Origin: a virus
Direction: 5' to 3' (one strand)
Virus record (IMG/VR): IMGVR_UViG_3300046170_000299
Length of the DNA: 64,000 nt
Shown here piece by piece: positions 13,404 to 55,386 of this stretch (its first letter is position 1; the number at the start of each line of letters is the position of its first letter). Under the pieces are notes generated by a model that was given only the letters and a program-made list of their open reading frames with translations, searched no databases and was not told the origin of the DNA. The position numbers and the translations under genes were made by a program.

Positions 13404-14459
13404 ATGACGACAAGTACACTAAACATTCCACAGAGGGGGTGGTTCGATGTATTGGATGACTGGCTTAAACGAGATCGCTTTGTCTTTATTGGTTGGTCTG
13501 GACTACTTCTTCTTCCCACTGCTTATCTTGCCATTGGTGGTTGGCTTACTGGCACGACTTTTGTCACGAGTTGGTACACCCACGGACTCGCTACTTCCTA
13601 TCTTGAGGGTGCTAATTTTCTTACGTCAGCTGTCTCGACGCCTGCTGATGCTATGGGTCATTCTCTTCTTCTACTTTGGGGTCCTGAATCTCAGGGGGAT
13701 TTCGTCAGGTGGATCCAACTTGGGGGACTCTGGGCTTTTGTGGCTCTCCACGGTGCCTTCGCTCTCATTGGTTTCATGCTTAGACAGTTTGAAATCTCTC
13801 GTCTTGTAGGAATTAGACCGTACAATGCTATTGCGTTTTCTGGGCCTGTCGCTGTTTTTGTCAGTGTGTTTCTCATCTATCCTCTCGGACAGTCCAGTTG
13901 GTTCTTTGCACCGTCGTTTGGTGTTGCAGCGATATTTAGGTTCCTACTCTTCCTACAGGGCTTCCATAACTGGACGCTCAACCCATTCCATATGATGGGT
14001 GTTGCAGGTATCCTAGGTGGTGCATTGCTTTCTGCTATTCATGGAGTGACTGTCGAAAATACACTCTACGAAGATGGCGAACAAGCAAATACTTTCAAAG
14101 CTTTTGATAGTACACAAGAGGAGGAGACTTACTCGATGGTTACTGCGAACCGTTTCTGGTCACAGATCTTCGGTATTGCTTTTAGTAACAAGCGTTGGTT
14201 GCATTTCTTTATGCTCTTCGTTCCCGTCATGGGTCTCTGGACTAGTTCTATCGGTATTATTGGACTCGCTCTTAATCTACGTGCTTACGACTTTGTATCT
14301 CAAGAGATTCGTGCGGCGGAGGATCCTGAATTTGAAACGTTTTACACCAAAAACATTCTATTGAATGAAGGACTACGTGCATGGTTGGCACCAGTTGATC
14401 AACCTCACGAGAAGTTTGTATTCCCAGAAGAAGTTCTACCTAGAGGCAACGCACTATGA
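13404..14459 (+). CDS. psbD: photosystem II D2 protein
   Basis: [22 protein letters not shown]...[11 protein letters not shown]. Confidence 0.99.
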
Positions 14460-26418: not shown

Positions 26419-26426
26419 TATAAATA
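26419..26426 (+). promoter_or_regulatory. late promoter TATAAATA
   Basis: Perfect T4 late consensus 20 nt upstream of gp26. Confidence 0.8.
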
Positions 26427-31589: not shown

Positions 31590-34484
31590 ATATGGATGAC
31601 TCATTATCACGGTTAGTACCAGTAAATCAAATTGGATCCGATGGATACGCTTGGTGGATTGGACAAGTAGAAGGAACTGTAGATGACGATAAAAACAATA
31701 AAGGTGGATATCGTTATAAGGTAAGAATTGTAGGAGATCATCCTGGTAATAAGGATATTCTTCCTACTGCTGCTTTGCCATGGGCAACCGTGATGATGCC
31801 AGTTACAACACCATTCATGCCAGGTAATGTTGGTGGTGCAGCTTCTCAGTTAATTGAAGGTTGCTGGGTAACTGGATTTTATGTAGACGCAGACAAAGCA
31901 GAAACCTATTATCTTAGGTTCTATTGGTCAAACACCTGCAGCTACAAAGATTATTAATACGCCAGGACCAGAAAGAAAAGCATTTGTTACAGGAGAGAGT
32001 TATGGGTCACAAGTTGACCCATATAAAGATGGGGCAGAAGAAGTAACAGAATCAGGCACTACTGAAACATCAGGTGTTTCTGAAAAGGGTGCTAGAACAG
32101 GTTCTGGTCTATCTACAGGAAGAGAAGTTGAGGATGAAGATGGTGAAAAGAGAGAAGACGTTCCTGTACCACCAGCAACAAAAGAAAGATTGAAAAGAGA
32201 AGAGTGGTGTCAAAGTGTTGCTGAAAAATGCAAAGACCAAGATTTAAAAACACAGATGACCAATATTGTTGGTCAGATGTTAGCTGATATACAGAATAAT
32301 GGTGGCAACATTGGAGATTTTTATGTTAACAAAGTTAGTGGTGGTGTAAACAGTTCAATTGCTAAGGCTAGAACATCTATTAACAAAGCACAGCGTGTTG
32401 TTACTGAGTTCTTGGCAAGAATTAAAGGTTATATTAAACAACAATTACAGGAGGCTGTAGACAACTTAGTGAAGGCATTACTGAAACCAGATGAAACTGG
32501 TAATGCTTTAACTCCTGTAACAGAATTCTTCAACAATGCTTTGAAAGACCTTGGTTGTCAAATGGCAGACTTGGGTGAACGTTTGATGGCATGGTTAACA
32601 AATGTATTGATGAGTTATGTCAACAAAGCATATCGCGCTGCTATTTGTCATATAGATGAGTTTGTAAATGGAATCATCTCTAAGATCAATCAGTTGATTA
32701 CTGAAATCCTTGGTAAAATATTAGGACCTTTACAAGATATTCTTGGTGCTATTGCTGAACCACTTAATATGATTGGTCAAGCTATCAATTTTGTTCTAAA
32801 ACTTCTTGGCATTTCTTGTTCTGGTCCAGATCAAACATGTAATAAGTACAAGAAAGCATGTACTAATGGAGAAGAAGAAAAGAAAAAAGATGATGAAGAT
32901 TTCTTGGATAATCTTTTGAGTAGTATTGATAATCTATTTGGAGATACTCCTGGTGATTATACACAGTATGTTTGTGAAGAAGCATATACTGGAAATCCAT
33001 TAACACTTACTACTATTGGATTTACTGGAGGTGTTCCTTTACCATATACACCAAAAGGTCCTGATGATGTATCTACAAAGAGACCAAAAATTACATATAA
33101 TATTCAAGATATTAAAGTAACTAGGGGTGATATTGCTATATTCACAATTAATCGTTCTGGATACCTAGGATCTGCTTCTTCTGTTACATTCAAAACTTTA
33201 GATACACAAGGTACAGCAACTCCTGAGGAGGATTACTTACCAGCAAATACAATTGTTGGTTTTCAACCAGAAGAAACTTCAAAAACTGTTGAGATTCGGA
33301 CGTTTGGAGATCCATTATCTGATAGATCAACAGAAAAATTTTATGTAAGTATCAAGAAAAATAGTCCAATTGATAGTAGCGGAATCAAATCATTTTTTAC
33401 ATCTAATATTGCAGAGTGTGAGATTTCACCACAACCAATTAAAGAAGTATATCCTCCATACAAACCACCAGCAGAAAATCCAATTGATATTGATGTTCCT
33501 GAAGATCCTGTGACTCCTCCTGATGATGATGGAGATGGTACGCCAAATGATCCTACCGACGATCCATCTAACACTACACCTTCTTATGAAGTTGTAGCTA
33601 ACAGATCTATTTGTCCAGAAGATGAATTTATTATCTATTCAATTACTACTAGTAATGTAGATAATGGAACTATTTTATTCTACAACTTATTCGGTCAAGG
33701 TATTACATCTGATGATATCATTAATGGGTCTTTAACTGGATCATTTGTTGTTAACAATGGAAAAGCACAAGTAACTGTTGGTATTGCAGAAGATGATGTA
33801 GTAGAAGAGGCAGAAAATCTAACTTTTGCTATTACAGGTAAGGGAGCTACTGCAGATGTTTTAATTGTATCAAGAAAAGATCTAAACCTTCCTGATTTTG
33901 ATGAAAGTGTTGGTGATTCTATTGAGAGTGTATTTGAGGAGTTTAAACCACCTGCAATTAATATTCCTGATGTAATTACTGATGATAATGGTGGTATTAT
34001 CGAAATTCCTGTGGATAATCCTGGCGATCCATGGGCAGAACCACCATTCGTATTCATTGGTGGGGAAGGAGTTGGTGCAACTGCAACGGCATTATTAGAT
34101 GACAATGGATTCTTAACTGAAATTCGTGTCATCTCACCAGGATTTGGTTATAAGAAAAACCGCTCTGATGATAACGACAAGAGATGTGTCATTGATACAT
34201 TTACCGCTGTTAAATTTGGAATTGGATACAAAGTTAAACCAGAGATTTTTATTAATGATGAACCAGGATTAGCAGAAGCTATCATTAATGATGATGGATT
34301 TTTAATTGGTGCTAGAATTCTCAATAGAACAAAAACTTTTGAAGGATTTCCTGAGATCAAAGTCGTTGGTGGTGGTGGATATGGAGGACAATTGTTACCT
34401 TCATTAGTATGTCTAGATACAGATGGACTTTCCAAGATTGGTTCTACTAAAATTGGTACAGGTCGTTATGTTGATTGTCCTTAG
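31586..34484 (+). CDS. gp5: baseplate central spike gp5-like (OB-fold, no lysozyme; Calx-beta-like domain); one frameshift near 31895
   Basis: WWIGQVEG...RYKVRIVGDHP...LPWATVMMP...GCWVTGFYVD then KQKPIILGSIG after removing one A; joins track ORF 32190-34484. Confidence 0.85.
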
Positions 34485-36136: not shown

Positions 36137-36511
36137 ATGATCAAAACCGCTTTTGCTGCCCTTGCAGCTGCTTCTGCAATCGCTGCTCCTGCCGCATTCG
36201 CTGGTCCTTACGTCAACGTAGAGGCTAACTCTGGTTGGACGGGATCCGATTATTCTGGGACGAATACAGACCTTCACGTAGGGTATGAAGGTGCTCTTGG
36301 CGAATCTGCATCATACTACGTCCAAGGAGGCGCTACTGTACTTTCTCCCGATGGCGGAGAATCTGACACTGTTCCTTCTGGTAAGGCAGGCGTTGGCGTT
36401 GGCGTTACTGATGCTCTTGGTCTCTACGGAGAAGTCAGTTTCGTTGGTTCGGGTTCTGACAGCGTTGACCGTGGATACGGTACAAAGGCAGGTATCAAGT
36501 ATTCATTCTGA
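36137..36511 (+). CDS. small outer-membrane beta-barrel protein
   Basis: Signal peptide MIKTAFAALAAASAIAAPAAFA, alternating beta strands, C-terminal GIKYSF beta-signal. Confidence 0.8.
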   Translation: MIKTAFAALAAASAIAAPAAFAGPYVNVEANSGWTGSDYSGTNTDLHVGYEGALGESASYYVQGGATVLSPDGGESDTVPSGKAGVGVGVTDALGLYGEVSFVGSGSDSVDRGYGTKAGIKYSF

Positions 36512-40621: not shown

Positions 40622-40972
40622 ATGCCTTACAAAGATAAAGAAGAAAATCGTAAGTACCAGCGCGAGTGGGCGAAAAAGAATTCAAAGACTATTAAATCAA
40701 ATCAAATTGGTTCTCAGAGGAGAAAGCAGATAGTAGAGGATGCAAAGAAGCATTCATGTATCATTTGCAATAAAGACTTTCATCCTGTACAAATGGATCT
40801 TATTCATGTAGATCCATCACCAAAAAAACATAGTGTATCGAAATTATTACAGATAGCTAGTTACAAGACATTACAAGAAGAGATTGATAAGTGTGCCCCA
40901 ATATGTGCAAACTGTAATAGACTACTACAGAATGGTCATGTAGATCTACCAGAACTCATTGTCATGCCATAA
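40622..40972 (+). CDS. HNH-like zinc-binding endonuclease (catalytic residues degenerate)
   Basis: CIIC...DLIHVDP..K...EEIDKCAPICANCNR. Confidence 0.75.
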   Translation: MPYKDKEENRKYQREWAKKNSKTIKSNQIGSQRRKQIVEDAKKHSCIICNKDFHPVQMDLIHVDPSPKKHSVSKLLQIASYKTLQEEIDKCAPICANCNRLLQNGHVDLPELIVMP

Positions 40973-41032: not shown

Positions 41033-41040
41033 TATAAATA
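41033..41040 (+). promoter_or_regulatory. late promoter TATAAATA for the giant virion-protein operon
   Basis: Perfect consensus 40 nt upstream of ATG 41080. Confidence 0.85.
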
Positions 41041-41079: not shown

Positions 41080-44000
41080 ATGCCATTAACACGTTTAGAT
41101 AACCTTATTAGTTCCAAGACTGGTAAGTATCTTTATGTTTCGCCAGACGATTTTAACGCAACGGATGCGTTATCTAACCGAGGCAATTCACCAGTAACAC
41201 CTTTTAAGAGTATTCAGAGAGCATTCTTAGAGATTGCTAGATATTCTTATCTACCTGGTTTCCAGAACGATAGGTTCGACCAGTTCAGCATTATGCTGAT
41301 GCCTGGTATTCACTATATTGATAACCGTCCTGGTCTTGTTGACACCAGCGGTATTGATGTATTTGGATTTGATCAAGCTACTAATGCTTGGACTGATGAT
41401 AGCATCCTAGACATCTCTAACCCAGATAACGTCTTCTATAAATTTAACAACACTGAGGGTGGTGCAATCATCCCTAGAGGTTCTTCACTCGTAGGTTATG
41501 ACCTAAGAAGAACTGTTGTTCGTCCAATGTACGTTCCCGACCCTGCAACAACGGAACGTGAAATTCCTCGCTCTGCAATCTTTAACGTAACTGGTGGTTG
41601 TTACTTCTGGCAGTTCACTATTAAGGATGGACAAACTACATCTGAATCTCCTCTCTACGATAACTCTGAAGGAAGTGGTTTAGTCTATTATGATCCTAAA
41701 GATTTCGCAAAAAAATCCGCACCAAATTTTTCTCACCATAAGCTAACTGTATTTGAATATGCTGATACAGAAGAGTTAAGTCTTTTCTATAGAAAAATTG
41801 CAAAAGGTTTCTCTGCATATCAACCTACAATTGATGATCCTGGTGAATTTGATTTCAGGGTTCAAGAGAACAGAATTGTTGGTCCTTTATCTGACTCTAG
41901 AGTTATTGAGTCTTTAACTCTTGCAGATGCTACAACTGATCCTAGTATTCCTGCATCCACTGCAGAAATTACAGTAACAACTAAAGTTGATCATGGATAT
42001 TTTGCTGGTCAGTTTGTTGCTATTGCTAATACAGAAATTGATGATGTATTAGAAGGTATCTTCCAGATCAAAGAGATTGATCAGAATGATGCTCGTAAAT
42101 TTAAGTATGAAGTTCCATTCGTTGTAAGTGGAATTGGTAGTAATATTGTATCTGGTCAGACAGTTAGTGTTGACACTACTCCTGCACTAGGACAGAATGC
42201 ACAAACATTAGCAGAGGTTGACTCTGTTGAATCTGCATCACCATATGTCTTTAACGTATCGATTAGATCTACGTGGGGTATTTGTGGTATCTGGGCGAAT
42301 GGTCTTAAGGCAACAGGCTTTAAGTCGATGGTTATCGCTCAGTACACGGGCGTATCGTTACAGAAGGATGACAGAGCATTCATTCGTTATGATGAATATA
42401 CTAACACATGGAACCAAGCATCACTAGTAGATGCATTTGCTACTGTTCCTTATCACACCAAGGGTGATAGCTATTGGAAGGATGAGTGGAGAAACTTCCA
42501 CGTTCGTGCTTCGGATGATGCTTTCATTCAGAACGTTTCTATCTTCGCTGTTGGTTTCGCTGATCACTTCCTCATGGAAAGTGGTGGTGACATGTCTATC
42601 ACCAACTCGAACTCTAACTTTGGTAATACATCTCTACATGCTATTGGTTTTAAAGGTTTCGCCTTTAACCAAGATAAGGGTGGTTTCATTACTGACATCA
42701 TTCCACCTGAAGCAGTTGTTGACAATACTGCCAGCACTAAAAAGATTTCATATTATACTATTGATATTCAGGGGACATTACAAACTTCCTCAAATTATAC
42801 CAAACTATTCCTTGGTAATGATGACATCGTAGATCCTCTGGTAAGACCAGCTGCGACTATCACTGGTTATAGACTTGGTGCTAAGTCTAATGATAGACTA
42901 TATGTCAAGTTAGATAATGCTCCTGGCACAGATGAATTCTTTAATGTACAACTAGAACCAACTGGTTTTGTTAAGTATGTTGCTAAGGGTTCTATTCTTA
43001 ATCCTTCTGGTGGTGTAGTTAATAGTGTCTATGCAGATGCTGCTAACCTAATTGAATCTAACCGCCGTATGATTCAGGAGGAAGTCTTTGGATATATCCT
43101 AGAGAAGTATCCTAGACTCCAGAATATTCCTTATGTTAATCCTGGTCTAAATCCTGCAGGTAACAGATACTTTGATGCTCGTAATTTAATTGCTGCTAAC
43201 CGTCAAGAGATTGTTGATACAGCATTCGATGATATGATCACAACCTATGGATCTAGTGTGATCCAAGGTATTGGTGATGGTAAGTGTAAGAGAGATATTG
43301 GTCTGATTGTTGATGCTGTTGCAGAAGATCTTAAGGACGGTGGTAACTCTAACGTTATTGCTGCAACCAGAACTTACTTTGATGGTGATGGCAATCCACT
43401 AACTAATGGTTTAGTTGGTGAGGAAGACTATGCAACCTATGCATTCCGTAGAGCTCGTGATTTATGTAAACTTGCTATTGCTAACCTACTAACTGTACAG
43501 GCAGATCTATATGATCCTGATCCTAACAGTAATCTTGCTCCTTATGGTATCAATGTCGGTAAGACAGGTTCTCAGGCAGAACTAGATGGTGATACAACTA
43601 ACGGTGTAACGATTGACCTTGCACTTAAGGCAGATCCTGCATCCCGTTATAAGGACGCACGTAACAGAATTGTCGCCAATAGAGAGTTCATCCTAGATGC
43701 AGCACTTGCTGAGGTAAGTGTATATCATCCTGACTTCTACATTCCTGGCGACACACAAACCAATTCACAGTCTAGACTTGCTGATGGATTTAGAATGATC
43801 CGTCGTAACTCTTCTGAGATTAGAGATAAGGCACTTGCAGCTATTGCTGTTGCTCATCCTAACTTCTATATTGATGGTGATAATCAGACTGATGAAGGAT
43901 CTAGATATGCATCTGCATATCGTTTGATTGCAAACAATAGAAACCAGATTATTGATGTTGCATTGGCAGAAACAACTGTACAACATCCAGACTATTACTT

Positions 44001-47000
44001 TGTTGGTGATCAACAGACTGATGCACGTTCAAGATATGCTGATGGTTATCGTTTAATCCAGCAAAACAAAACTGAGATTGTCAACACTGCATGGACAAAT
44101 ACACTAGGACAGTATGCAGGCGCTGCAGCTACTGAAGTTAAGTGTAAGCGTGACATGGGAATCTTCGTTGATTCTGTATCTCTTGACCTCTTCGTTGGTG
44201 GTAACAAGTACGCACGTAAGTTTATTCAAGAATACTTCAATGCTGCTGGTAATGCTTGGATCTCTGGTGGTCTACAGGGTGAAGAGACTGAAAGTATCTA
44301 CGCATTCAACCAAGCAAGAGATTTAATGAAATCTGCTGTAGCTAACCAGTTGAGTGTTCAGGATCTTAGTGTTACACCAGGTCCTGCACAATATGCTGGT
44401 GGTGGCGGAGATATTGCTAACACTAACGCTGGTGCATGTGATGATGTACAATCTGCAATCACAACTCTAGTTGATATTGTTACGACACAGATTGCTGCTG
44501 GTAATCTCAATGCTTTACCTGCTGAGACAGCATACATCGCAGGTCCTGGCGAAGAGAAATGCCGTAGAGATATTGGTATCTTTGTTGATAGTATCGCACT
44601 TGACTTGTTCTGTAAGGGTAATGTTTACACTCACAGATTTGGAGCAGAGTTCTTTACAGATGCTTCAACTCCTGAGTTCTCATTCAACTCAGCGGTATAC
44701 AATACCAACTTCAATAAAGCTGCTGAGACGATCAAGAAAGCGATCACTAATCAACTTTACGAGAAAGATCTATTCAGAACAGCAGACAATGCACCTGGCT
44801 CAGCATATGGTCAGGTATCTAAGGATTACACACCACATGGTGCAACTTATGATGCAGCAACTGGTGATATGGTTCTCAGTATCGCTAACCATGGTTTAAG
44901 TAATGGCGATCGTGTTAAGATTGCAGATTCTGGAGTTGTATTTACATGCACTATGGATAGCAATGGTAGTAACCATGCATATCCACGTAATACAGACCCT
45001 GCATCTGGTCAGTACCTTGAGATTACTGCATCTACAACAGATAGTATCACAGTTAATGTTGGTGCATCTCCTGCTGGACAGCAATACGATCATACATTTG
45101 TAAGTGCTGTTGCTAATTGTGTAAACTTTGCTGGTAACACTGCTAATCAACTAATCGACGCTCAGACTGCTCTATGCTCTGACGTTCAATCTGCTGTTGA
45201 CTCACTAACAAGTATTGTAACTACAATTCTTTCTAATGGCAACCTCAGCACCATGCCTATTGAGGTTAACTATGGTAGTGGTAGAGGTCCTGGCGAACTT
45301 AAGTGTGCTCGTGACATCGGTTACTTTATCGATGCTATCTCCGTTGATATGTTCTGTGAAGGTAATAAGCATACTAGAACATTCACTGAGCAATACTTCA
45401 CTAATGCTACTACACCTCTAAACAACGGTCTTGTTGGTGAAGAAGCAGAAAGTGTTACTGCTTTCAACACTGCTCTTAATGAAATGAAGAGAGCAGTTAC
45501 CAACCAACTATACTATAAAGATCTCACTGTCACTGAGGGTGAAAGTCAATGGGGAGATGGCAATGGCACTGTTGCTAGAAATTCTTCTACTGCATGTGCT
45601 GATGTTCAGAATGCTATCACTACACTAGGAACTATTGCTACTGATGCAATCACTGCTGGTAATATTACTGGTGGTATCTGGAACTCTGCTGCTAACGCTG
45701 GAACGTTCATTACTGGCGAAGCTAAGTGTCGTAGAGACCTTGGCATCGTTGTTGATGCTGTTGCACAGGATCTCTGGTTTGGTGGTAACGAGTTTACTAT
45801 CGCTGCAACTAAGGAATACTTTAATAACAATGCATTAATTGCTAACGGTGTTGATGCTGAAGTTGCACCTTCTATCACTGCATTCAAGCGTGCTGAAGAT
45901 TTAATGCAGCGTGCATTAAACAACGTTTACTATGATCGTGACCTTAATATTACACTAGATCAGACGGGTGATCCACCAATTGTAGGTGACATCGAGTGTG
46001 ATGCACATGACATGGTAACCTCTAACCTAGACTTCATTGCAGAAGAAGCATATCTTCGTATGATTGCTGCATATCCTGCTTACACACCACAGGCAAACAA
46101 TACTGCACAAGATTGTAAGGATGATGTTATTACTGTCCTTAAAGAAGTCATGTGGGACGTTAAGTTTGGTGGCAACTACAAGACATATGATGCTGCTAAG
46201 ATCTATGTCACCAACTACGACTATCAAACTGGCACTAACATCTCTACTTTCCTTGATGCTGAGCGTGATGAAGCTGCTAAGGTAATGCTTGAGGCGAAGA
46301 ACATCGCCATGCAGGTTATCAAGAATGAAACTGTAACTGTTGATGCTGCTAACACCAAGACTCAGGTCATTGATAATACTATCGTAGAAGACTGGGATGC
46401 AACTGAACTACTACCTAAGTGTGGTTCTGCTGTAGCTGCTGTTGATACTTTGTTTGGTATCGTTATTCAAGCGATTGGTAATGATGGTGGCGTAGGTAAT
46501 CTTGATGGTGTAGTTAGAACTACTCTTGATGGTCCTGATCCTGCATGGAACAAGGCACTCAATGTTATCAGCACTACTGCTACTTCCGTTACACTTAACG
46601 TTGGTGCATCTGCATCTGGTGATCAATATCCACATACATTTATCGCAGCAGCTGCTGGTGCTTTAGTATCTGGTGGTGCTTATGCTCATACATTTGTAAG
46701 TGCATCTGCTGGTGCAGTTAACGTCGTTAACGGTTCTCAGATTACACCAACCAATGCAACATACGATGCTGCAACTGGTGATCTAACTCTATACTTTGGA
46801 TCTGCACACGGTGTAACTACTAGTGATCAACTATCTATTGATGATAACTCACTCACATTCTCTTGTGATATGGGTAGAGATTCAACAACTAAGACTTATC
46901 CTCGTGCTGGATCTGATCCTGTTGCTGGTCAGAATGTCAACCCAACTGCTGTAACTGCAACCTCTATTACAATTAATGTTGGTGCATCTCCTCTAGTTGA

Positions 47001-50000
47001 GCATAACGTATCTAACGCAGTATATGATTCTGCAACTGGTTCTATTGCTCTTACGATTGGTGCTCACACACTAACCTCTGGTACTAGCGTCAAACTTAAG
47101 GAAGAATCTTTAATCTTCAAGTGTACTAAGGATCAGAATGTTATGACACATTCCTATCCTAGAGCATCTGGTAAGTACAGACCTGCTGCATATGCAGATG
47201 GCAACTGTTCTGATGTTCTTGCAACTGTTAACGCACTGATTGACATCACATGTAACTCTCTTAACGATGGTAACCTCAACAACTTACCACCTCTAAACAA
47301 TGGTGAGTGGGATTGTGCAAACGTTCGTAGTTCTATCGAAGTTCTCTTTGATATTCTACAGGATGCAATCGTTGGTGGTACACTTGCTGGTCTACCTCCT
47401 CTTAACACTGGAGACTTCACAATCAATAACGAAGCATCTAAGTGCTTCCGTGATGTTACTTACATCGTTGATGCTGTTGTTAATGACTTACGACTTGGTG
47501 GTAACCTCAACAGTATCCAAGCTGGTGAAGCATACTATGTTGGTAACAACCTAGAGTACATCGACGGTGAGAAGACTGAAACTCTAGATGCATGGAACTA
47601 TGTCGGACAGATGGCAACTGCTGCCATGAGAAACTTCGATGTTCTTGCATTCAACTGTTCTACAACTACTGGTTCTGCAATCGTTGACGTTAACGATACT
47701 CGTGGCATCATTATTGGTATGGGTGTCAAGGAATACGATGACACTGATCCAACTGCACCAGCATATGTCAATGGATTGCTACAAAGTGGAGCAACTCAAC
47801 TAGTATCTAATATCCCTGCTGGTACATATGTCAAGAACATTGTAAGTAATACACAAATTGAACTTGGTGTTAATGGTTCTAGACTAACTGAAGGTAACAC
47901 AGTCAACGCCTTACAGACTAGCACTACAACTGAACTATACTTTGTATATGAAAATGGTATTTGGGCAGATACATTACCCACAACTAAGATTGTCGGTCCT
48001 GCAGGAACTGGTGAAGAGGTCATTCAAGACACCACAGTTTCTCCAACAAATAGAGAGTGTTCTGGTACTGCTAATGCTATTGAAACGTTAGTTGGTAACA
48101 TCACTACTATTATTAATAGTGGTCTTGGCACAGTTACTAGACAAGAGCAGACAGTTAACACTGCACTTCTTGCATCTAGAGCTACAGTATTTACGATTGA
48201 CGTTTCTGGTAGTGGTCCTTCTAACCCACATGACTTTGAAACTGGTACAGCAGTTAGATTGGTTCCACGTCCACGTTTCGATCAAGTAACTGGTAAGTAT
48301 GTTGATGTTGATAAGCGTCTTGTTAGACTACCTAATGGTTTTGATACTAACAGAACATACTATGTCATTGCACCAGGTAGAGTAACACAACCAGAGAACT
48401 ACGGTGGTACATCATTCTTCGATGGTAGTGATCAAACTAGATTGATGCTTGCAACCTCTAGAGAGAACGCAGCATCTGGTATTTACATCTATGCATCTGA
48501 AACAGATAGCATCGATAAGGATGTTGAGATTGATCTCTATCAGTTTGTTCTTGACGACAAGTATGATCTACACAATTATACTGGTGTATTAAGCACATCA
48601 GTTAACGCTGGTATTCAAACAGATGTATCTCACATCTTTGATGTTCCTAATGCTGGTACTACACCTCAGAAAGCATTCATCAGAGCTGTTGAAGGTGGTG
48701 TTCTACCTCTAATCTCACAGACCTATGTTAATGATCCTCAAGTTGCGGTAACTGATCCGCAGAACTCTGCTATCGGTAGAATCAATCCTAACATTGAGTT
48801 CTTCACTCGTTATCAGAATAATAAGACACTTACATTACACAAGACACATGCTGATGCAATTAACAATGTAAATCCAATTACATTTGCAGCTGGTCAATCT
48901 GGTCTTGAGTTCAATGTTTATGCTAACAAGAGTCGTTCGCCAATGCGATTCGATCCTGGTTTCACTGATGCTACTGCAACCAATGGTAAGTGGTACATCC
49001 AGTGTAAGGACGAGGTAACTGGTAGTGGTGATCCTACAGATAATATCTTCTGGAGAATTTCTCAATCTGATTACGCTGATAGACAGAGATCCACTGACAT
49101 GTGGTATGAGCGTCTAGAAGATAATCGTGATAAGGATGATAGAACATACAAACTACGTATGGTCATTCCTAAGTATCTTGAGAATGCAAGAGATCCTATT
49201 AATGGATTTGTTCTTAAGACAAGAACTGATGACACACGTAAGTTAGTACCTCAGAAGGTTGTATTGAAACCAGTTGTTGGTACAGTATATGGTGCTCGTT
49301 TTGAAAACCCAGTACAAGCTGGTGAATATATTGGATATGATTCTGCTGATTTCAATACTAATAGTCTTAATTTAGATGCACAGTATGATCCATTTAAAAA
49401 GGATCAAACAGGTGCAGGTATTGAGTATAGAGCATTTGCAAGATTCACATCTGGTATTCAGGCAACTATCCAATCTGGTCGTTATGTAGAAGACGTTTTA
49501 GATCCTTCTATCAAGTATCTTGAGTTGAATCTATATGATCATGCTGTTGATACTAGAAACTTCCCTGGCTTGAGGAACGAGACATTTACTACAGTTAAGA
49601 TTACTGCTCCTCAAGGTGGTAACTTTGTAACTAGTAAGGTTGATAACCAAGCATCATCTCCTAACGCTATTAGTTTTGCTGGTAATTCTTCTGGTTTAGC
49701 TAACGTTCATGCATATTATACAGTAAATGGTGAACATTACTTAATCATCAAGAACGTTCGTAGTGGTGATTTAGAGTATAGTGAATATGCCAATACAAGA
49801 TTCACTCAAGGCACTGTCTTTGCTGACATGCTTGAGGATCAGGACATGGGCAAATCGCTTCCTCTAAAAACTCAAATCAGAAAAAATAATCCCCAGTTTT
49901 TCTACAAGCAAAACGGCGCTAACGTTTACACTATCACACCTGGCGACAGAATTCAAGATGACGCTGGTGTTGAGTACTATGTTGATAGCGTTGAAGATGC

Positions 50001-53000
50001 AGGAGTTATCGAAGATACATTCTATATCTTCGGATATGAAACTCTACAAAAGAGAATTTCTGGACAGCAAGATGGTATCTACTATCTAACTGCCCTCCGT
50101 GGTAACGTTTCACCATTCCCAACTGGTGCTGGTGTAACTAACAACTTCAAGAAGTTTAAGTTCTCTCAACCAGTCAGTAAGCTATATCCTCTTAACTATA
50201 GAAACGATCCTCTTTGGTTTAAGAAGTCTGGTACTTCACAAGAAGAAAAAGATCTATATGCTGCATTAATTGACCCACCACAGGTATACTCTGCTGCTGA
50301 CAACTATGTACATGGTCTTGTCACAGTTAACGACTTTAAGAACTCTACAACCAGAGAGATGGTTGCAGACCTTACAGAACAACCTGCATTCTTGCTTAAC
50401 ACCTATACTGGTGGCAATACAATTCAAGCACAAAGTGGTAATGCAACTTCTGGTTCTGAAGATCGTAGGATTCCGATTTCTGGTGATAGCACAGTTCTCT
50501 CTGATCAGAGATATTATGTTGAACTTAGACGACCATCTATCGCTCGTGCTGGTAACCATACGTTTGAATATCTTGGTTTCGGTCCAGGCAACTACTCCAC
50601 TGGTCTACCAGCTAGGCAGGAAGTCGTCCTAACACCTGAAGAGGACTTCTACGCACAAAGTAAGAAACAAGACGCTGGTATTGTCTTCTACACTGGTATT
50701 AACTCACAGGGTGATTTGTACATTGGTAACAGAAGAATCAATGCTATTACTGGTGAAGAGACATTCATCGATTCTGCTGCATTAGTAGATGATGGAGACG
50801 AGGATGATACATTAGGCGGTCTAGTTACTACCTTCGATACTCCTGTAACATTCAACCAGAATATTACAGTTGTTGGTGGTGATGGTGAACTAGTTAATAC
50901 ATTTGAATCACCAATTACTATCGCTGTTCAAGATTCTGATCTAACACAGTCAAGAGATGCATTAATCATTCGTTCTAACGTATCTTCTATTGATCCTGTA
51001 ACACAACTAGAACAAGATGAGCAATTAGATAGAACTGCATTTGCTCCTCCTACTGATGGTGACATCAGACTTGGTAAAAACAGAATTCAATCCGCTATTT
51101 TTGGATTTAATTCCAGAGGAAATGGTCAAGAATATAAGATTCAAACACATACTACAGGCGGTGTAGCTTCTAACGTTACTCCTAATCAGTCTCCACTGAT
51201 CGCTAATGGTGGATCTAGAATTGATGTATCTCAGTTTATCACTTATGGTGGTGTAATCGCCGCACCTGGCGATATGCTACTCAAGGGAGCTGAAGTTGGT
51301 AAAAACGGATCTATCGCATGGATTCTTTCTAACTACTTCTCTAATATTTCTAATAATCAGATTGATAACATCGAGTTTGATGGAACCAATGTTGTTAAAC
51401 TCTCATTCAGAGACTTTACCAGTGGTGTTGCACTCTCAGTTGGTAATGATATTGGCATCACATCTGGTTCTCAGATTAGAATTAAGAACTTCTACTATGA
51501 TCCTAGACTAAACCTAACATGGCAGGTATACGCTGCTAAACCTGGTGATGCATTTAACCCAACAAATAACTACTGTCATTTCCAAGTTATTGATCAAATT
51601 CCACAAGATACACAAGCTTGGGAAAACATTATTGCTGGTACAGCTACTGGACAACCTAGTCCTACTATTGAATTCTCTAACTCTAACTTCAAGGAATTTG
51701 GAGTCATTGGTGCTGAAGCACTTAGAACAGAGACTGAGAGCATTGGTGAGTATAAGTTAGGCATCAACACTGTTGCTCGTGCTCCACATAGTGCATATGC
51801 AAATGCATGGGTAAATCCAACAACGACTGATCCTCGTGCAAACCTTGATGTTGTTGGTAACGCATTCATCAGTGGTAGAGTTACAGGTGATTTCTTAGAT
51901 CATACTAACTTCGCTGATCGTGATAAGACTGCAATCGACAATGCACTATTAATTGGTGGTGATAGTTCTGCTCCTAACGATGAGGCAGTCCTACGTGTTG
52001 CGACTACAAACGGTGGTCGTGTTGGTATTAATGTTGATAACTCTCAACTAGATAGAGCTCTGGTTGTAGATGGCACATCTAGATTCACTGATGATGCTCG
52101 TTTTGAGCATGACATTGAAGTCAATGGTGATGATGGTGTAATTGCCGAGATCAGAACATCACAGACAACAGGTACATTTAACTTAGTTGATGATACCACA
52201 TTTACTGGAACACTCAACATTGGTAGTCAGGTTGGCACATTCAACCTAGTCAATGATACTACTGATGATCAGTTTATCTACGTTGGTACTTCATCAACAC
52301 ACAGTAATATCTTCATCGGAACTACTTCTGATACACCTAGTTCTAATATTTCTAAGGTTGAAATTGGTGGTGGATATAACAATAACGAGTCTCTATCCTT
52401 TACTAGAATCAAAACCAAGTCCTTCAAGGTTGATGGTGACTTCCAGCTAGGTGCGAGAAGAACAATTAATGATACTGTAAACCTAACCACTAGTGCAGGT
52501 AAAGTTTCATTCTTCTCTAACTCTGGTTCTGCTTCTATTCTTGATTTCGCACTTAATGCATCTGAAATCAACATTGCTGGTCAGGGTGGTCTAACCACAA
52601 TTAACAACCAGTTGAGAGTTGTTGCTTCTGCACAGTTTGATGGAAACATCCTAATGTGTGGTGGTGTTGCGGCATTCTCCTTCTTAGGTGACAGGGCACA
52701 ACTTGGATCCACTGCATTCGCTCATGCTGATGGTATTCTAAGTGATACATTATTCAATAAGAACATTGACATTCTTAATGTCTTAGTTCTACAGACAACT
52801 GATGAAGGTTACAACCAAGTTGATACTGCTGGTGCTGGTCTCTGGGGTGGTGCTGCTTATCAACAGGAAGTTACAAACATTGGTGGAGCACCAGCTGTTG
52901 AACCACAGACATTGGGTGTTCTAACTGGTGATGAATACTGGTTACCACTCAAGTTTGCACCTGTTAAGCAAAATGGTGATCCATACTTTGTTGAGAATGA

Positions 53001-55386
53001 TTATATTATTATCAACAGTGCAGTTTCTGGTAGCGGACATCCTGAGATCGTTCAGGTTCTAGAATTAACTAGAACATCTGTTGCTCCTTACTACCTCAAG
53101 GTTAAGCGTCAACCACTTGGTACTTACACTGCAATTCTAAACAATCATATTGATACTACACCTATTTTCAAGGTTAACGTACAGTTTGATGCCACATGGA
53201 CTGAGCAGGCACTAGATTCTACTGGTCCTCAAGACAATGTATATCTTTCTGAGTTTGGTGGTGTTCTAACAAATAATGATTATGTAATCATTGACCGTGA
53301 AGATACAAACAGCGATGGCATCTTTAATCAAGGTGAAGTTATCAAGGTTGTTACTCCTCTAGAGGCAGTAGAACAGAAATTCAGAATTTCTAAAGATTGT
53401 TCTCAAGGTGAAGCTGGCGATGTGTTCATTGTCAACTCTGTAACAGGTGACACTACTATCCTTGGCGATACTACTATCAATAACACTCTGACAATTAAGG
53501 GTGGTTGTGGAACACTATCCAATGTTCAGTTTAATGGAACTGCAACTGCTGGAACTAATATTATTACTGGTGTAACTGTTACGAGTCCTGATAAGACAAT
53601 TGCTGATATCAAGATTGGTGATACCATTGTTAATATTACTAACGAGTCTCCAATTAACTTCTCGCCAGATGCAGTCATTACAGCAATTGATTCAGTCAAT
53701 GGTGAGTTAGTTCTAAGCAGAAACACACTTGGTTCTTCTTCCCAGACTGTAGGATTAGCAGCTAGGAGAAATGAGCAATTCTTGATCACAGATGGTAATC
53801 AAGTACCAACATTCAGGGTAGATTCTTGTAGTGGAACTACACATATTGGTAATCAATATGGTAGATTCGATATTGAATACTCCAGTGCTGGAGAGACTAC
53901 TTCTAATACTGCTGGTATTCCTGCACTATTTGATGCTGGAACTATCAAGAGAGCATATAGTTTCTGGTTCGATCCACAGCATGTATCTGATGGTGGTCCT
54001 ACTACTACAATCGCTAGTGCTGTTGCTGGTAGCGCAAGTCAAATCCAGATTCCTGTTCAATCTCTTGGTGTTGGTTCTGGTGCGTTTGCTGTTGATGATT
54101 TAGTATTTGTTGGATCACCAACTGCAACAACTACTCAAATTGGTGATTATATTATTGGTAAGATTACACAAATTATTACCAACCCTGCTAACTTAACTAT
54201 TGTTGTTGAAGATGCTGGTACTGGTTTAAATACCAACAAGACATTTACTCCATCTGATAGTGCATTTGATGCTGGTAATACTGTTAGAAGACTAATCAAG
54301 CATAAGGAACTTGCTAATATCATCGATGTTGAGCAGAGAACTAGAGTTAACTCTGGTGCTTCTACCACATATATCTCGATGATCCTTGATAAAGGATATA
54401 TCTCTCAGCAAAAACTTGATTACGCTCAATTCTTAGCTCTTGCAGATGACGAAGGTGATGCTAAGATTTGGGTCAAGGTTGTTGGAAGACTGAAAGGTGA
54501 TGTTCATCAAGTAACGATGAACGAACAAATTCAAGATGGTGCAATTGGATATAGAAGTGGTAACACTCTCATCAATGGCAACTTGGATATGGCTGGTGGA
54601 AGCTTCCAGATCTTCGATTCTGTTAATCAGACAAGACTGTTTGCTTTAGTTAATGATGATGGTCACGCTGATCACCAAGGTCTACTAACTTGGGATGCTG
54701 GTGTTACTGCAAGAGGTGACTTCTATCTCTTCAGCGCACAAGATCCAGAGAACGTTGTTTTAAATCCAGATGCTAATGTTCCATCATTCTCTGTTGATAA
54801 CCTGGCTAATGTAACTGCTGGTAGGTCGTTTACTGTTAATGGTCTGGCATCTAATCCACCTTCTACAACATTCAAGCAATTTGCTTTAGAAAATCTTGGT
54901 GTAGATGGCACAGAAGAGTATGCAATTAAGCAAGATAGTTCTATCGATGCATTTGGTATTACTAACTTCACTACTTCTAGTGGTGCTAGACATACAAGAT
55001 ATATTTCTTCTGCATCTCCAGAAGAGGATCTAACATTAGTACCAAATATTACTTATATGGTAAATACTACTGCTTCAACTACATTAGTTCTTACATTACC
55101 ATCTGGTCCTCAATCAGGAGATATTGTGAGAATCACAGATGTTGGTGGTAACTTAAGCTATAATACATCATTGGTACTAAGAACAGCAGAATCTTCTGGA
55201 ACTAAGATTCAGGGAGATGATACTGGAACACTGTTGGGTGGAAGAATTACACCATATCCTTCTGGAGAACTGGTAGTTCAAACTCCTAATGCTGCGTTTG
55301 CTCTTGTATATCTTGGTTCTGTTGATAGTAATGGACAAGTTGGTATTCCAACTTCAGTACAAGGATGGTGGTTAACCGAGGTATAA
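41080..55386 (+). CDS. giant (4768 aa) virion/tail structural protein: N-terminal beta-helix-like region, central phycobiliprotein-like repeats, C-terminal fibre-type domains
   Basis: Uninterrupted 14.3-kb ORF behind a late promoter; YVSPDD..ATD...G.SP..PFKSIQRA beta-helix entry; C-terminal LVLTLPSGPQSGDIVRITD fibre motif. Confidence 0.92.
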   Translation: MPLTRLDNLISSKTGKYLYVSPDDFNATDALSNRGNSPVTPFKSIQRAFLEIARYSYLPGFQNDRFDQFSIMLMPGIHYIDNRPGLVDTSGIDVFGFDQATNAWTDDSILDISNPDNVFYKFNNTEGGAIIPRGSSLVGYDLRRTVVRPMYVPDPATTEREIPRSAIFNVTGGCYFWQFTIKDGQTTSESPLYDNSEGSGLVYYDPKDFAKKSAPNFSHHKLTVFEYADTEELSLFYRKIAKGFSAYQPTIDDPGEFDFRVQENRIVGPLSDSRVIESLTLADATTDPSIPASTAEITVTTKVDHGYFAGQFVAIANTEIDDVLEGIFQIKEIDQNDARKFKYEVPFVVSGIGSNIVSGQTVSVDTTPALGQNAQTLAEVDSVESASPYVFNVSIRSTWGICGIWANGLKATGFKSMVIAQYTGVSLQKDDRAFIRYDEYTNTWNQASLVDAFATVPYHTKGDSYWKDEWRNFHVRASDDAFIQNVSIFAVGFADHFLMESGGDMSITNSNSNFGNTSLHAIGFKGFAFNQDKGGFITDIIPPEAVVDNTASTKKISYYTIDIQGTLQTSSNYTKLFLGNDDIVDPLVRPAATITGYRLGAKSNDRLYVKLDNAPGTDEFFNVQLEPTGFVKYVAKGSILNPSGGVVNSVYADAANLIESNRRMIQEEVFGYILEKYPRLQNIPYVNPGLNPAGNRYFDARNLIAANRQEIVDTAFDDMITTYGSSVIQGIGDGKCKRDIGLIVDAVAEDLKDGGNSNVIAATRTYFDGDGNPLTNGLVGEEDYATYAFRRARDLCKLAIANLLTVQADLYDPDPNSNLAPYGINVGKTGSQAELDGDTTNGVTIDLALKADPASRYKDARNRIVANREFILDAALAEVSVYHPDFYIPGDTQTNSQSRLADGFRMIRRNSSEIRDKALAAIAVAHPNFYIDGDNQTDEGSRYASAYRLIANNRNQIIDVALAETTVQHPDYYFVGDQQTDARSRYADGYRLIQQNKTEIVNTAWTNTLGQYAGAAATEVKCKRDMGIFVDSVSLDLFVGGNKYARKFIQEYFNAAGNAWISGGLQGEETESIYAFNQARDLMKSAVANQLSVQDLSVTPGPAQYAGGGGDIANTNAGACDDVQSAITTLVDIVTTQIAAGNLNALPAETAYIAGPGEEKCRRDIGIFVDSIALDLFCKGNVYTHRFGAEFFTDASTPEFSFNSAVYNTNFNKAAETIKKAITNQLYEKDLFRTADNAPGSAYGQVSKDYTPHGATYDAATGDMVLSIANHGLSNGDRVKIADSGVVFTCTMDSNGSNHAYPRNTDPASGQYLEITASTTDSITVNVGASPAGQQYDHTFVSAVANCVNFAGNTANQLIDAQTALCSDVQSAVDSLTSIVTTILSNGNLSTMPIEVNYGSGRGPGELKCARDIGYFIDAISVDMFCEGNKHTRTFTEQYFTNATTPLNNGLVGEEAESVTAFNTALNEMKRAVTNQLYYKDLTVTEGESQWGDGNGTVARNSSTACADVQNAITTLGTIATDAITAGNITGGIWNSAANAGTFITGEAKCRRDLGIVVDAVAQDLWFGGNEFTIAATKEYFNNNALIANGVDAEVAPSITAFKRAEDLMQRALNNVYYDRDLNITLDQTGDPPIVGDIECDAHDMVTSNLDFIAEEAYLRMIAAYPAYTPQANNTAQDCKDDVITVLKEVMWDVKFGGNYKTYDAAKIYVTNYDYQTGTNISTFLDAERDEAAKVMLEAKNIAMQVIKNETVTVDAANTKTQVIDNTIVEDWDATELLPKCGSAVAAVDTLFGIVIQAIGNDGGVGNLDGVVRTTLDGPDPAWNKALNVISTTATSVTLNVGASASGDQYPHTFIAAAAGALVSGGAYAHTFVSASAGAVNVVNGSQITPTNATYDAATGDLTLYFGSAHGVTTSDQLSIDDNSLTFSCDMGRDSTTKTYPRAGSDPVAGQNVNPTAVTATSITINVGASPLVEHNVSNAVYDSATGSIALTIGAHTLTSGTSVKLKEESLIFKCTKDQNVMTHSYPRASGKYRPAAYADGNCSDVLATVNALIDITCNSLNDGNLNNLPPLNNGEWDCANVRSSIEVLFDILQDAIVGGTLAGLPPLNTGDFTINNEASKCFRDVTYIVDAVVNDLRLGGNLNSIQAGEAYYVGNNLEYIDGEKTETLDAWNYVGQMATAAMRNFDVLAFNCSTTTGSAIVDVNDTRGIIIGMGVKEYDDTDPTAPAYVNGLLQSGATQLVSNIPAGTYVKNIVSNTQIELGVNGSRLTEGNTVNALQTSTTTELYFVYENGIWADTLPTTKIVGPAGTGEEVIQDTTVSPTNRECSGTANAIETLVGNITTIINSGLGTVTRQEQTVNTALLASRATVFTIDVSGSGPSNPHDFETGTAVRLVPRPRFDQVTGKYVDVDKRLVRLPNGFDTNRTYYVIAPGRVTQPENYGGTSFFDGSDQTRLMLATSRENAASGIYIYASETDSIDKDVEIDLYQFVLDDKYDLHNYTGVLSTSVNAGIQTDVSHIFDVPNAGTTPQKAFIRAVEGGVLPLISQTYVNDPQVAVTDPQNSAIGRINPNIEFFTRYQNNKTLTLHKTHADAINNVNPITFAAGQSGLEFNVYANKSRSPMRFDPGFTDATATNGKWYIQCKDEVTGSGDPTDNIFWRISQSDYADRQRSTDMWYERLEDNRDKDDRTYKLRMVIPKYLENARDPINGFVLKTRTDDTRKLVPQKVVLKPVVGTVYGARFENPVQAGEYIGYDSADFNTNSLNLDAQYDPFKKDQTGAGIEYRAFARFTSGIQATIQSGRYVEDVLDPSIKYLELNLYDHAVDTRNFPGLRNETFTTVKITAPQGGNFVTSKVDNQASSPNAISFAGNSSGLANVHAYYTVNGEHYLIIKNVRSGDLEYSEYANTRFTQGTVFADMLEDQDMGKSLPLKTQIRKNNPQFFYKQNGANVYTITPGDRIQDDAGVEYYVDSVEDAGVIEDTFYIFGYETLQKRISGQQDGIYYLTALRGNVSPFPTGAGVTNNFKKFKFSQPVSKLYPLNYRNDPLWFKKSGTSQEEKDLYAALIDPPQVYSAADNYVHGLVTVNDFKNSTTREMVADLTEQPAFLLNTYTGGNTIQAQSGNATSGSEDRRIPISGDSTVLSDQRYYVELRRPSIARAGNHTFEYLGFGPGNYSTGLPARQEVVLTPEEDFYAQSKKQDAGIVFYTGINSQGDLYIGNRRINAITGEETFIDSAALVDDGDEDDTLGGLVTTFDTPVTFNQNITVVGGDGELVNTFESPITIAVQDSDLTQSRDALIIRSNVSSIDPVTQLEQDEQLDRTAFAPPTDGDIRLGKNRIQSAIFGFNSRGNGQEYKIQTHTTGGVASNVTPNQSPLIANGGSRIDVSQFITYGGVIAAPGDMLLKGAEVGKNGSIAWILSNYFSNISNNQIDNIEFDGTNVVKLSFRDFTSGVALSVGNDIGITSGSQIRIKNFYYDPRLNLTWQVYAAKPGDAFNPTNNYCHFQVIDQIPQDTQAWENIIAGTATGQPSPTIEFSNSNFKEFGVIGAEALRTETESIGEYKLGINTVARAPHSAYANAWVNPTTTDPRANLDVVGNAFISGRVTGDFLDHTNFADRDKTAIDNALLIGGDSSAPNDEAVLRVATTNGGRVGINVDNSQLDRALVVDGTSRFTDDARFEHDIEVNGDDGVIAEIRTSQTTGTFNLVDDTTFTGTLNIGSQVGTFNLVNDTTDDQFIYVGTSSTHSNIFIGTTSDTPSSNISKVEIGGGYNNNESLSFTRIKTKSFKVDGDFQLGARRTINDTVNLTTSAGKVSFFSNSGSASILDFALNASEINIAGQGGLTTINNQLRVVASAQFDGNILMCGGVAAFSFLGDRAQLGSTAFAHADGILSDTLFNKNIDILNVLVLQTTDEGYNQVDTAGAGLWGGAAYQQEVTNIGGAPAVEPQTLGVLTGDEYWLPLKFAPVKQNGDPYFVENDYIIINSAVSGSGHPEIVQVLELTRTSVAPYYLKVKRQPLGTYTAILNNHIDTTPIFKVNVQFDATWTEQALDSTGPQDNVYLSEFGGVLTNNDYVIIDREDTNSDGIFNQGEVIKVVTPLEAVEQKFRISKDCSQGEAGDVFIVNSVTGDTTILGDTTINNTLTIKGGCGTLSNVQFNGTATAGTNIITGVTVTSPDKTIADIKIGDTIVNITNESPINFSPDAVITAIDSVNGELVLSRNTLGSSSQTVGLAARRNEQFLITDGNQVPTFRVDSCSGTTHIGNQYGRFDIEYSSAGETTSNTAGIPALFDAGTIKRAYSFWFDPQHVSDGGPTTTIASAVAGSASQIQIPVQSLGVGSGAFAVDDLVFVGSPTATTTQIGDYIIGKITQIITNPANLTIVVEDAGTGLNTNKTFTPSDSAFDAGNTVRRLIKHKELANIIDVEQRTRVNSGASTTYISMILDKGYISQQKLDYAQFLALADDEGDAKIWVKVVGRLKGDVHQVTMNEQIQDGAIGYRSGNTLINGNLDMAGGSFQIFDSVNQTRLFALVNDDGHADHQGLLTWDAGVTARGDFYLFSAQDPENVVLNPDANVPSFSVDNLANVTAGRSFTVNGLASNPPSTTFKQFALENLGVDGTEEYAIKQDSSIDAFGITNFTTSSGARHTRYISSASPEEDLTLVPNITYMVNTTASTTLVLTLPSGPQSGDIVRITDVGGNLSYNTSLVLRTAESSGTKIQGDDTGTLLGGRITPYPSGELVVQTPNAAFALVYLGSVDSNGQVGIPTSVQGWWLTEV
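43021..48130 (+). repeat. about 7 helical protein repeats with C-x-R/K-D...GGN and a second C-x11-D motif
   Basis: First-type Cys codons at 43285, 44143, 44560, 45304, 45727, 46114, 47443; second-type at 44437, 45175, 45595, 46420, 47206, 47314, 48058. Confidence 0.85.

Follow-up and report, generated by a model that had tools for sequence, protein, structure and literature searches.

Phycobiliprotein-like repeats with a putative bilin-attachment motif in a giant tail protein of T4-like cyanophages

Introduction

Phycobiliproteins (PBPs) serve cyanobacteria and algae as antenna pigments and are not known as components of virus particles. Whether a phage could have turned one into a component of its virion is the question raised by a giant late gene in IMG/VR virus record IMGVR_UViG_3300046170_000299, from which we analysed a stretch of 64,000 nucleotides (nt), referred to below as the window. 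The window comes from a T4-like cyanomyovirus, and the protein encoded by the giant gene, P0001 (4768 amino acids, aa), repeats a helical unit seven times. An earlier sequence-only reading had seen in these units an array of PBP-like domains with a Cys84-type bilin site, which might give the particle a pigment, and knew of no description of such an array. The literature that we searched gave none either: no publication on PBP-like domains in phage virions was found in it, and none of the names under which domain-bearing proteins appear in the phage records or BFVD refers to a phycobiliprotein.

Here we present evidence that the repeats are probably true relatives of PBPs, in which the part of the fold made by helices A/B, E, F and G has been retained. 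We put the probability that the repeats attach a bilin at roughly 0.4, which makes attachment about as likely as a purely structural role; any response of the particle to light is unlikely.

Results

The repeat proved to be as described in the sequence-only reading and larger. All seven of the quoted 22-residue segments are present in P0001, with their cysteines at aa 736, 1022, 1161, 1409, 1550, 1679 and 2122 (codons at nt 43285, 44143, 44560, 45304, 45727, 46114 and 47443). The fourth contains KCARDIGY exactly (it reads KCARDIGYF), the distance from the cysteine to the Gly-Gly pair is 18-19 in every copy, as in phycocyanin alpha, and the upstream helices RYFDARNLIAANRQEIVDTAFDDM and ILDAALAEVSVYHPDFYIPGD, which had been likened to allophycocyanin, are also found. 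The region at nt 43021-48130, corresponding to aa 648-2350, holds all seven units. A hidden Markov model (HMM) built from the seven unit cores of P0001 (the core HMM) finds each of them again at E = 1e-29 to 1e-39 and recovers 889 copies, 835 of them distinct, from 121 homologous giant proteins with between 1 and 17 copies each. The repeat is therefore real and not a chance pattern.

Each unit extends well beyond the 22-mer and consists of a long helix, a loop, the Cys helix (consensus K-C-x-R-D-I-G-x-x-V-D-A-V-x-x-D-L-x-x-G-G-N), a short helix ending in Y-F, another loop and a final long helix (consensus 'G-E-E...A-F..A.d.m..A..N'). The first helix comes in two forms, an a-type (RY.DA.RLI..N+..IVD.A), which precedes units 1 and 2 and occurs in four extra tandem copies at aa 861-1017, and a b-type (C.DVQSAI..L..IV), which precedes units 3-7 and has orphans at aa 1781, 2043 and 2327. 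Every b-type helix starts with a second conserved cysteine (aa 1120, 1366, 1506, 1640, 1781, 2043, 2079 and 2327). P0001 thus has eight b-type helices to seven cores, and some of these helices could form the end of the unit before them or be pieces of domains that inserts have split; the orphan with Cys1781, for instance, might complete unit 6 or come from a domain broken up by the inserts that follow it. Interspersed among the helical units are three beta-rich modules of about 95 aa ('YDAATGD..L......FTC...YPR...P..G'). Coordinates of the units and of other features are collected in Table 1.

To place the repeats among known families we used three alignments: A1, the unit-1 family (32 rows, aa 640-840); A2, unit 4 with 39 paralogous or orthologous units; and A3, 24 CpcA sequences, the cpcA genes being pulled from cyanobacterial genomes by a degenerate pattern. 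When A2 was searched against 177,635 PDB sequences, 38 matches were returned, the first 35 of which are all alpha chains of phycocyanin, phycoerythrin or phycoerythrocyanin; in the best of them (E = 0.002) query positions 12-70 lie on chain residues 44-103. A1 also had C-phycocyanin alpha on top (E = 0.076). Profile-profile comparison with hhalign gave probabilities of 94.5% (A2) and 83.7% (A1) against the 24 CpcA, and of 92.8% (A2; P = 3.9e-7) and 94.0% (A1; P = 1.4e-7) against a 33-sequence profile of alpha plus beta PBPs. The likeness is collinear, running from helix A/B through helix E into F/G, and with a relaxed threshold it covers 97-123 columns and reaches PBP residue ~145. Reversed queries and 40 column-shuffled queries, run as controls, scored 9-29 with P of at least 7e-4, compared to 46-51 for the real queries.

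The family also reaches the curated PBP profile of Pfam, PF00502, whose gathering threshold is 22.2 bits. P0117, the 'putative short tail fibre' of S-RSM4, reaches 57 bits with its best stretch on profile 35-83 (E = 3e-15), and P0011, an orthologue 87% identical to P0001, scores 26.3 bits on its a-type repeat (profile 26-72), a stretch that lies within the four tandem a-type helices and has no Cys motif. By our own count, 78 of the 120 homologues listed carry a precomputed PF00502 match.

Fold prediction pointed the same way for unit 1. Its AlphaFold (AF2) model, made for aa 640-840 from the 32-row alignment, had a mean confidence (predicted local distance difference test, pLDDT) of 59 and a predicted template-modelling score (pTM) of 0.62, with residues 60-170 at pLDDT 64-88. 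Foldseek listed ~50 PDB matches for this model (E 0.05-0.4, probability ~1, template-modelling (TM) score 0.42-0.5, ~128 columns), all of them PBPs or PBP-derived fluorescent proteins save for a globin-sensor domain ranked 39th. VIA, which is independent of Foldseek and was run over 48,161 representative chains, put nine PBP-fold bilin binders in its top 11 with Z of 8.2-9.9, including an allophycocyanin-like chain, photocobilins, phycoerythrin, the ApcE bilin domain and far-red allophycocyanin, and laid model residues 48-170 on PBP residues ~34-145. VIA values of Z below 13 can come from common helical arrangements; therefore, the fold evidence backs the sequence evidence and does not stand alone.

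Not all of these searches favoured kinship, and an alternative is that there is no common ancestry at all, the repeat being a helical bundle of phage origin with a short convergent motif that itself led AlphaFold to a PBP-like arrangement. P0001 has no PF00502 match at E <= 1, the seven single units have none at E <= 10, and an orthologue 99% identical to P0001 reaches only a sub-threshold 11.5 bits at aa ~693-743. The confident part of the hhalign match spans only 32-62 columns at helices B and E, and E-values against the PDB are modest (0.002-0.08). Of the globin-like PBP fold (helices X, Y, A, B, E, F', F, G and H), neither the X/Y hairpin nor helix H has a counterpart in any alignment or fold match. 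Both models are of low confidence, and unrelated helical proteins are among the VIA matches too (Z 7-8). Unit 4 modelled alone (helices B-E-F-G, 40-row alignment) gave a pLDDT of 63, a pTM of 0.34 and a Foldseek TM score of ~0.2 to PBPs, presumably because the boundaries chosen miss a helix, as would be the case if a b-type Cys helix completes the unit ahead of it or if inserts split the domains. An ESM Atlas feature search with unit 4 returned FIVAR and CAMP-factor clusters (score 0.77) and no PBP cluster, a result that we counted as uninformative.

Such points weigh against a PBP origin and against a bilin site. However, a bare motif would not explain why a-type helix plus core and b-type helix plus core are each collinear with the B-loop-E segment of PBPs at P ~1e-7 while reversed and shuffled controls fail, why orthologues score 26-57 bits on the curated Pfam profile, including in stretches without the Cys motif, why two independent fold searches put bilin-binding PBP folds first, or why the spacing from Cys to Gly-Gly is identical. 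We consider convergence improbable. The earlier claim of PBP resemblance is thus borne out by the profile-to-PDB, profile-profile, orthologue Pfam and fold searches, with the qualifications that P0001 itself stays under the Pfam threshold, that the match is confined to PBP residues ~34-145 and that the structural models are of low confidence. In the AlphaFold and Foldseek check that had been proposed, unit 1 came out closest to PBP folds, in a low-confidence model, but the poor model of unit 4 on its own was not PBP-like.

If the fold is that of a PBP, does the site still look like one that could hold a bilin? In the seven units the motif reads K-C-K-R-D twice, K-C-R-R-D twice, and K-C-A-R-D, K-C-F-R-D and D-C-K-D-D once each. 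Across the 835 distinct copies the cysteine is kept in 98%, the Asp at +3 in 99%, the Arg at +2 in 82% and the Lys at -1 in 77%. hhalign sets the repeat cysteine on Cys84 of CpcA, with Lys83, Arg86 and Asp87 matched and an equal distance to the Gly-Gly turn. In PBP structures, Arg86 and Asp87 contact the chromophore. The repeats thus carry a Cys84-type attachment-site motif.

The same helix can be read in another way. The domains, though derived from PBPs, may now be purely structural, compact helical modules without any bilin that space or oligomerise parts of the fibre or baseplate, and the C-x-R-D...D...D...GGN helix would then be an interface between chains or between domains, with salt bridges, an ion site or a disulfide. 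Indeed, conservation extends over the whole E helix and takes in two Asp and an Asn (D..D....GGN) without PBP counterpart; the helix may be kept for a reason of its own. The b-type, canonical units have a near-invariant second cysteine ~43 residues upstream (C9 in A2), with which a disulfide is possible. Because of these extra acidic and Asn positions and this second cysteine, a structural or interface role stays a serious rival. Loss of the site is also tolerated in places: in unit 1, 14 of the 32 orthologues have lost the K-C-K-R segment, cysteine included, from a helix that is otherwise invariant, and the motif of distant copies in gp7-like proteins is C-E-D-D, C-K-T-D or C-I-D-D, with the Arg replaced. 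Around the copies lie beta-rich fibre modules, in proteins annotated as tail fibre, baseplate wedge or gp7-like; no alignment includes the X/Y and H helices of PBPs; and we know of no report of a coloured, fluorescent or otherwise pigmented cyanophage virion. Such observations tell for a structural role and against bilin attachment.

On the other side, the best-conserved part of the family is K-C-x-R-D, that is, the residues which in PBPs hold the chromophore (Lys83, Cys84, Arg86 and Asp87), and the remainder has drifted below Pfam recognition. A free cysteine in 98% of copies would be unusual for a purely structural helix. In unit 2, Cys1022 has no further cysteine within ~100 residues (it is the sole one between aa 797 and 1119); an intradomain disulfide is therefore unlikely to be the general reason for conservation of the cysteine. 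The domain is, moreover, confined to phages of bilin-containing hosts. We regard a solely structural role as quite possible, on a par with attachment.

A candidate partner for attachment is encoded 1.9 kb upstream of the giant gene, where the product of cpeT, a homologue of T-type bilin lyases, matches PF06206 over residues 3-170 of its 171 with a score far above the cut-off of 21 bits, and so belongs to that family. Its start overlaps the stop of a preceding 86-aa open reading frame (ORF) in an ATGA, and a 329-aa ORF and an HNH-endonuclease-like fragment lie between cpeT and the giant gene. Orthologues at an equal relative position in S-RSM4, S-WAM2 and ACG-2014e are annotated as CpeT-like or chromophore lyase. 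The CpeT of phage P-HM1 is said to bind phycoerythrobilin (PEB) tightly without transferring it to the host beta subunit.

To see how domain and lyase are distributed, we ran the A2 profile and a CpeT HMM on the whole records of 22 cyanomyovirus genomes. Both were present in 18 (S-RIM2, ACG-2014d, S-RIM12, P-HM1, S-CAM22, MED4-213, S-PM2, P-SSM4, Syn9, P-SSM7, P-RSM4, S-ShM2, S-SM1, Syn33, Syn19, S-SSM5, S-CREM1 and S-H38), both were absent from four (P-SSM2, NC_006883; Sf-FS3, PV340856; S-SM2, NC_015279; S-SSM7, NC_015287), and no genome was discordant. The association between the domain and cpeT is real. In a gp32 tree, however, the four double-negative genomes fall on one side of a single branch (support 84/79); a single change therefore suffices for the pattern, the association may represent a single evolutionary event, and we rejected the agreement in 22 of 22 genomes as strong evidence for a functional tie. 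We also rejected the converse view that co-occurrence is broken by tblastn counts (71 records with cpeT, 241 with the domain), since the HMM shows the 'missing' cpeT genes to be divergent copies. A further point against cpeT as the partner is that T-type lyases normally serve beta-Cys155 and not Cys84-type sites (PMC10452541). An S-type lyase (PF09367), looked for in five genomes, was not found there. The role of phage cpeT has been called 'unresolved' and the bilin-synthesis genes of phages 'a mystery' (Sullivan et al. 2010, PMC3037559).

A phenotype that might be connected with such a pigment is adsorption in the light. In the dark, P-HM1 and P-HM2 fail to adsorb to their host, whereas P-SSM2 still adsorbs, though to a smaller extent than when illuminated, and for the podovirus P-SSP7 light makes no difference (Liu et al. 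2019, PMC6628666); light-dependent adsorption of Synechococcus phages is also cited there (PMC6628666). In our survey P-HM1 has both the domain and cpeT and P-SSM2 has neither. With two lineages set against one, a link between the phenotype and the domain is anecdotal. S-PM2 is reportedly another phage with light-dependent adsorption.

The domain is widespread and, as far as it was followed, a cyanophage property. Units 4-5, searched by tblastn against 50,697 phage records, matched 241, all of them cyanophages (183 named after Synechococcus, 53 as Cyanophage, four after Prochlorococcus and one as a marine virus), and the proteins concerned are annotated as tail protein, short tail fibre, baseplate wedge, gp7-like or structural protein. 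The domain also occurs in 237 shorter metagenomic proteins. Three partial domain-bearing proteins (P0125, P0194 and P0228) are labelled in NCBI as belonging to a metagenome-assembled genome of a 'Candidatus Nanopelagicaceae bacterium'; they are most likely phage contigs that were binned with an actinobacterial genome.

The giant gene itself runs through 4768 codons without an internal stop. P0001 matches PHROG 4527 'short tail fiber' with 4617 bits, its first 612 residues match PHROG 529 'tail fiber' (E = 1e-288), and these matches, together with the position of the gene in a tail and baseplate cluster, place it among the giant tail-fibre/baseplate proteins of T4-like cyanophages. Over the repeat region the nearest isolate is Synechococcus phage S-WAM2 (73% nucleotide identity), in which the counterpart of P0001 is annotated 'tail protein / short tail fiber'; relatives carry the annotation 'virion structural protein'. 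The window further contains psbA (11727-12806), psbD (13404-14459), gp32, phoH and thyX, followed by the cluster of tail-tube, baseplate and fibre genes, with baseplate genes upstream of the giant gene and three Collar-domain fibre proteins and a tail assembly chaperone downstream. The sequence TATAAATA, which resembles the late promoter of T4, stands just ahead of the giant gene. It occurs four times in the window, always on the + strand, a count not above chance, so that the motif is not enriched and the position alone of this box is suggestive of a T4-type late gene. A second TATAAATA box at 26419-26426 (+) lies 27 nt upstream of a baseplate gene start.

This setting bears on one more alternative, namely that the domains imitate the antenna as a decoy inside the cell, binding a host partner such as a lyase, a linker, an NblA-type adaptor or a protease, and have no function in the virion. 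Cyanophages do carry other genes directed at the phycobilisome, such as nblA and cpeT (PMC12695635). Against such a role, the domains form part of late structural proteins of 3,000-7,000 aa that also have fibre and baseplate modules, the giant gene has a T4-type late-promoter-like box ahead of it, and there is no sign that a soluble PBP-like product is released. We hold mimicry to be very unlikely.

Three observations concern other genes of the window. The HNH-endonuclease-like fragment between cpeT and the giant gene (40622-40972, +, 116 aa) matches HNH endonuclease PHROGs in the C-terminal half only (phrog_3106 positions 108-230 of 252) and is probably a remnant of a homing endonuclease. For a 124-aa ORF at 36137-36511 (+) there is a match at E = 5e-50 to PF24653, the Pfam family 'Cyanophage outer membrane protein like beta barrel domain'. 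At 32190-34484 (+) lies a baseplate hub or tail lysozyme-type protein (phrog_1922) with a Calx-beta domain (PF03160, E = 1e-12).

Table 1. Positions of the giant gene, its repeat units and associated features in the window
Feature	Position (nt)	Strand	Basis or remark
cpeT, T-type bilin-lyase homologue, 171 aa	38661..39176	+	PF06206, E = 8.9e-37, 127 bits; 1.9 kb upstream of giant gene
TATAAATA, T4-type late-promoter-like box	41033..41040	+	40 nt upstream of giant-gene ATG
Giant late gene for a predicted virion protein (P0001, 4768 aa), tail-fibre/baseplate type	41080..55386	+	ORF and translation, PHROG matches
PBP-like unit 1, aa 648-816: two a-type helices, then Cys736 core (helices E, F, G)	43021..43527	+	alignment A1, hhalign 84-94%, AF2 model with Foldseek and VIA
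Four tandem ~43-aa a-type helix-loop repeats, aa 861-1017 (SRY.DA.RLI..N+..I.D.AL......P.FY..GD)	43660..44130	+	resemble PBP helix A/B plus loop
PBP-like unit 2 core, aa 1018-1106, Cys1022	44131..44397	+	core HMM
PBP-like unit 3, aa 1112-1243; helix Cys1120, site Cys1161	44413..44808	+	core HMM
Beta-rich inserted module, first of three copies ('YDAATG...FTC' type), aa 1250-1355	44827..45144	+	phrog_1276 on aa 1249-1333
PBP-like unit 4, aa 1358-1493; Cys1366, site Cys1409	45151..45558	+	alignment A2, PDB profile search, hhalign 93-94.5%
PBP-like unit 5, aa 1498-1629; Cys1506, site Cys1550	45571..45966	+	core HMM
PBP-like unit 6, aa 1632-1763; Cys1640, site Cys1679, divergent C-K-D-D	45973..46368	+	core HMM
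Orphan b-type Cys helix, aa ~1775-1805, Cys1781, no core behind	46402..46494	+	sequence pattern
Two further beta-rich 'YDAATG' modules, aa ~1885-2035	46732..47184	+	phrog_5342 on aa 1891-2022
PBP-like unit 7, aa 2036-2200: b-type helices Cys2043 and Cys2079, then Cys2122 core	47185..47679	+	core HMM
C-terminal fibre part, aa 2317-4768	48028..55386	+	PHROG 4527 best stretch aa 2317-4088; no core-HMM copy

Discussion

Taken as a biliprotein, the array would have arisen when a host phycobiliprotein, most like CpcA, was captured by T4-like cyanophages, duplicated and built into their late giant tail-fibre or baseplate proteins. Each unit would have kept that part of the globin-like PBP fold which forms the Cys84 pocket (helices A/B, E, F and G), together with the K-C-x-R-D signature. 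Late in infection a bilin from the cytoplasm, PEB or phycocyanobilin, would be bound in each pocket and linked by a thioether to the conserved cysteine, either autocatalytically or with the help of a lyase, the phage's own CpeT being the first choice. After release, a particle would in this way have tens of bilins on its fibres or baseplate, and these might serve to sense light.

The last of these steps is the most demanding. That the virion is a photoreceptor, in which CpeT-attached bilins on fibre or baseplate domains make fibre deployment or receptor binding dependent on light, strikes us as doubtful. If true, it would explain the light-dependent adsorption of P-HM1, P-HM2 and the like, and cpeT, perhaps with pebS, pcyA and ho1, would serve maturation of the virion instead of the host antenna.

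Bilin binding as such would already make cyanophage virions the first phage particles with a chromophore. It would bear on the adsorption of some cyanomyoviruses in the light only (PMC6628666), on the presence of cpeT in most T4-like cyanophages without the rest of the host operon (PMC3037559), and on the bilin-synthesis genes in phages of Prochlorococcus, a host without phycobilisomes (PMC3037559). Even without bilin, the fold of a host photosynthesis protein would have been recruited and multiplied as a building block of the virion, and on a broad scale, as the domain is met in hundreds of metagenomic proteins of 300 to 8,000 aa besides the cyanophage records.

How do the repeats compare with known systems? 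Their closest kin are the giant fibre and gp7-like proteins of T4-like cyanophages (PHROG 4527, 529 and 701; S-WAM2, S-RSM4, S-PM2d088 and the gp7-like protein of S-RIM2), which are orthologues or paralogues of P0001 and have the N- and C-terminal fibre parts and the repeat family in common with it; public annotation calls them tail, structural or hypothetical proteins, without mention of a PBP-like domain. The phage CpeT is a candidate partner of the repeats and not a relative.

Among bilin binders in which the PBP fold is a module of a larger or non-antenna protein, as it is in the phage units, are the bilin domain of the core-membrane linker ApcE (4xxi_A, 7sc7_BD), the photocobilins (8j2y_B, 8j2w_B) and the engineered smURFP and BDFP (7uqa_C, 6hrk_A). 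Against the unit-1 model their VIA Z is 8.3-9.9, and in ApcE the bilin is attached autocatalytically. These proteins differ from the phage repeats in being cellular or engineered and in having one bilin domain, no tandem array and no place in a virion.

With the alpha and beta subunits of PBPs themselves (PF00502), and especially with CpcA (1f99_A, 8z20_K, 7efv_A), the repeats have in common the collinear order of helix B, loop and helix E, the K-C-x-R-D-I-G-Y signature and the spacing from Cys to Gly-Gly, and their predicted fold matches PBP residues ~34-145. PBPs also have helix H and the X/Y dimerisation hairpin, through which they assemble as alpha-beta heterodimers and (alpha-beta)3 rings, and for neither of these parts do the phage repeats show a match. 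The phage domains come seven to a chain in a 4768-aa protein of predicted virion type, are interleaved with beta-rich modules, and add to the shared core two Asp and one Asn conserved in helix E as well as a second conserved cysteine.

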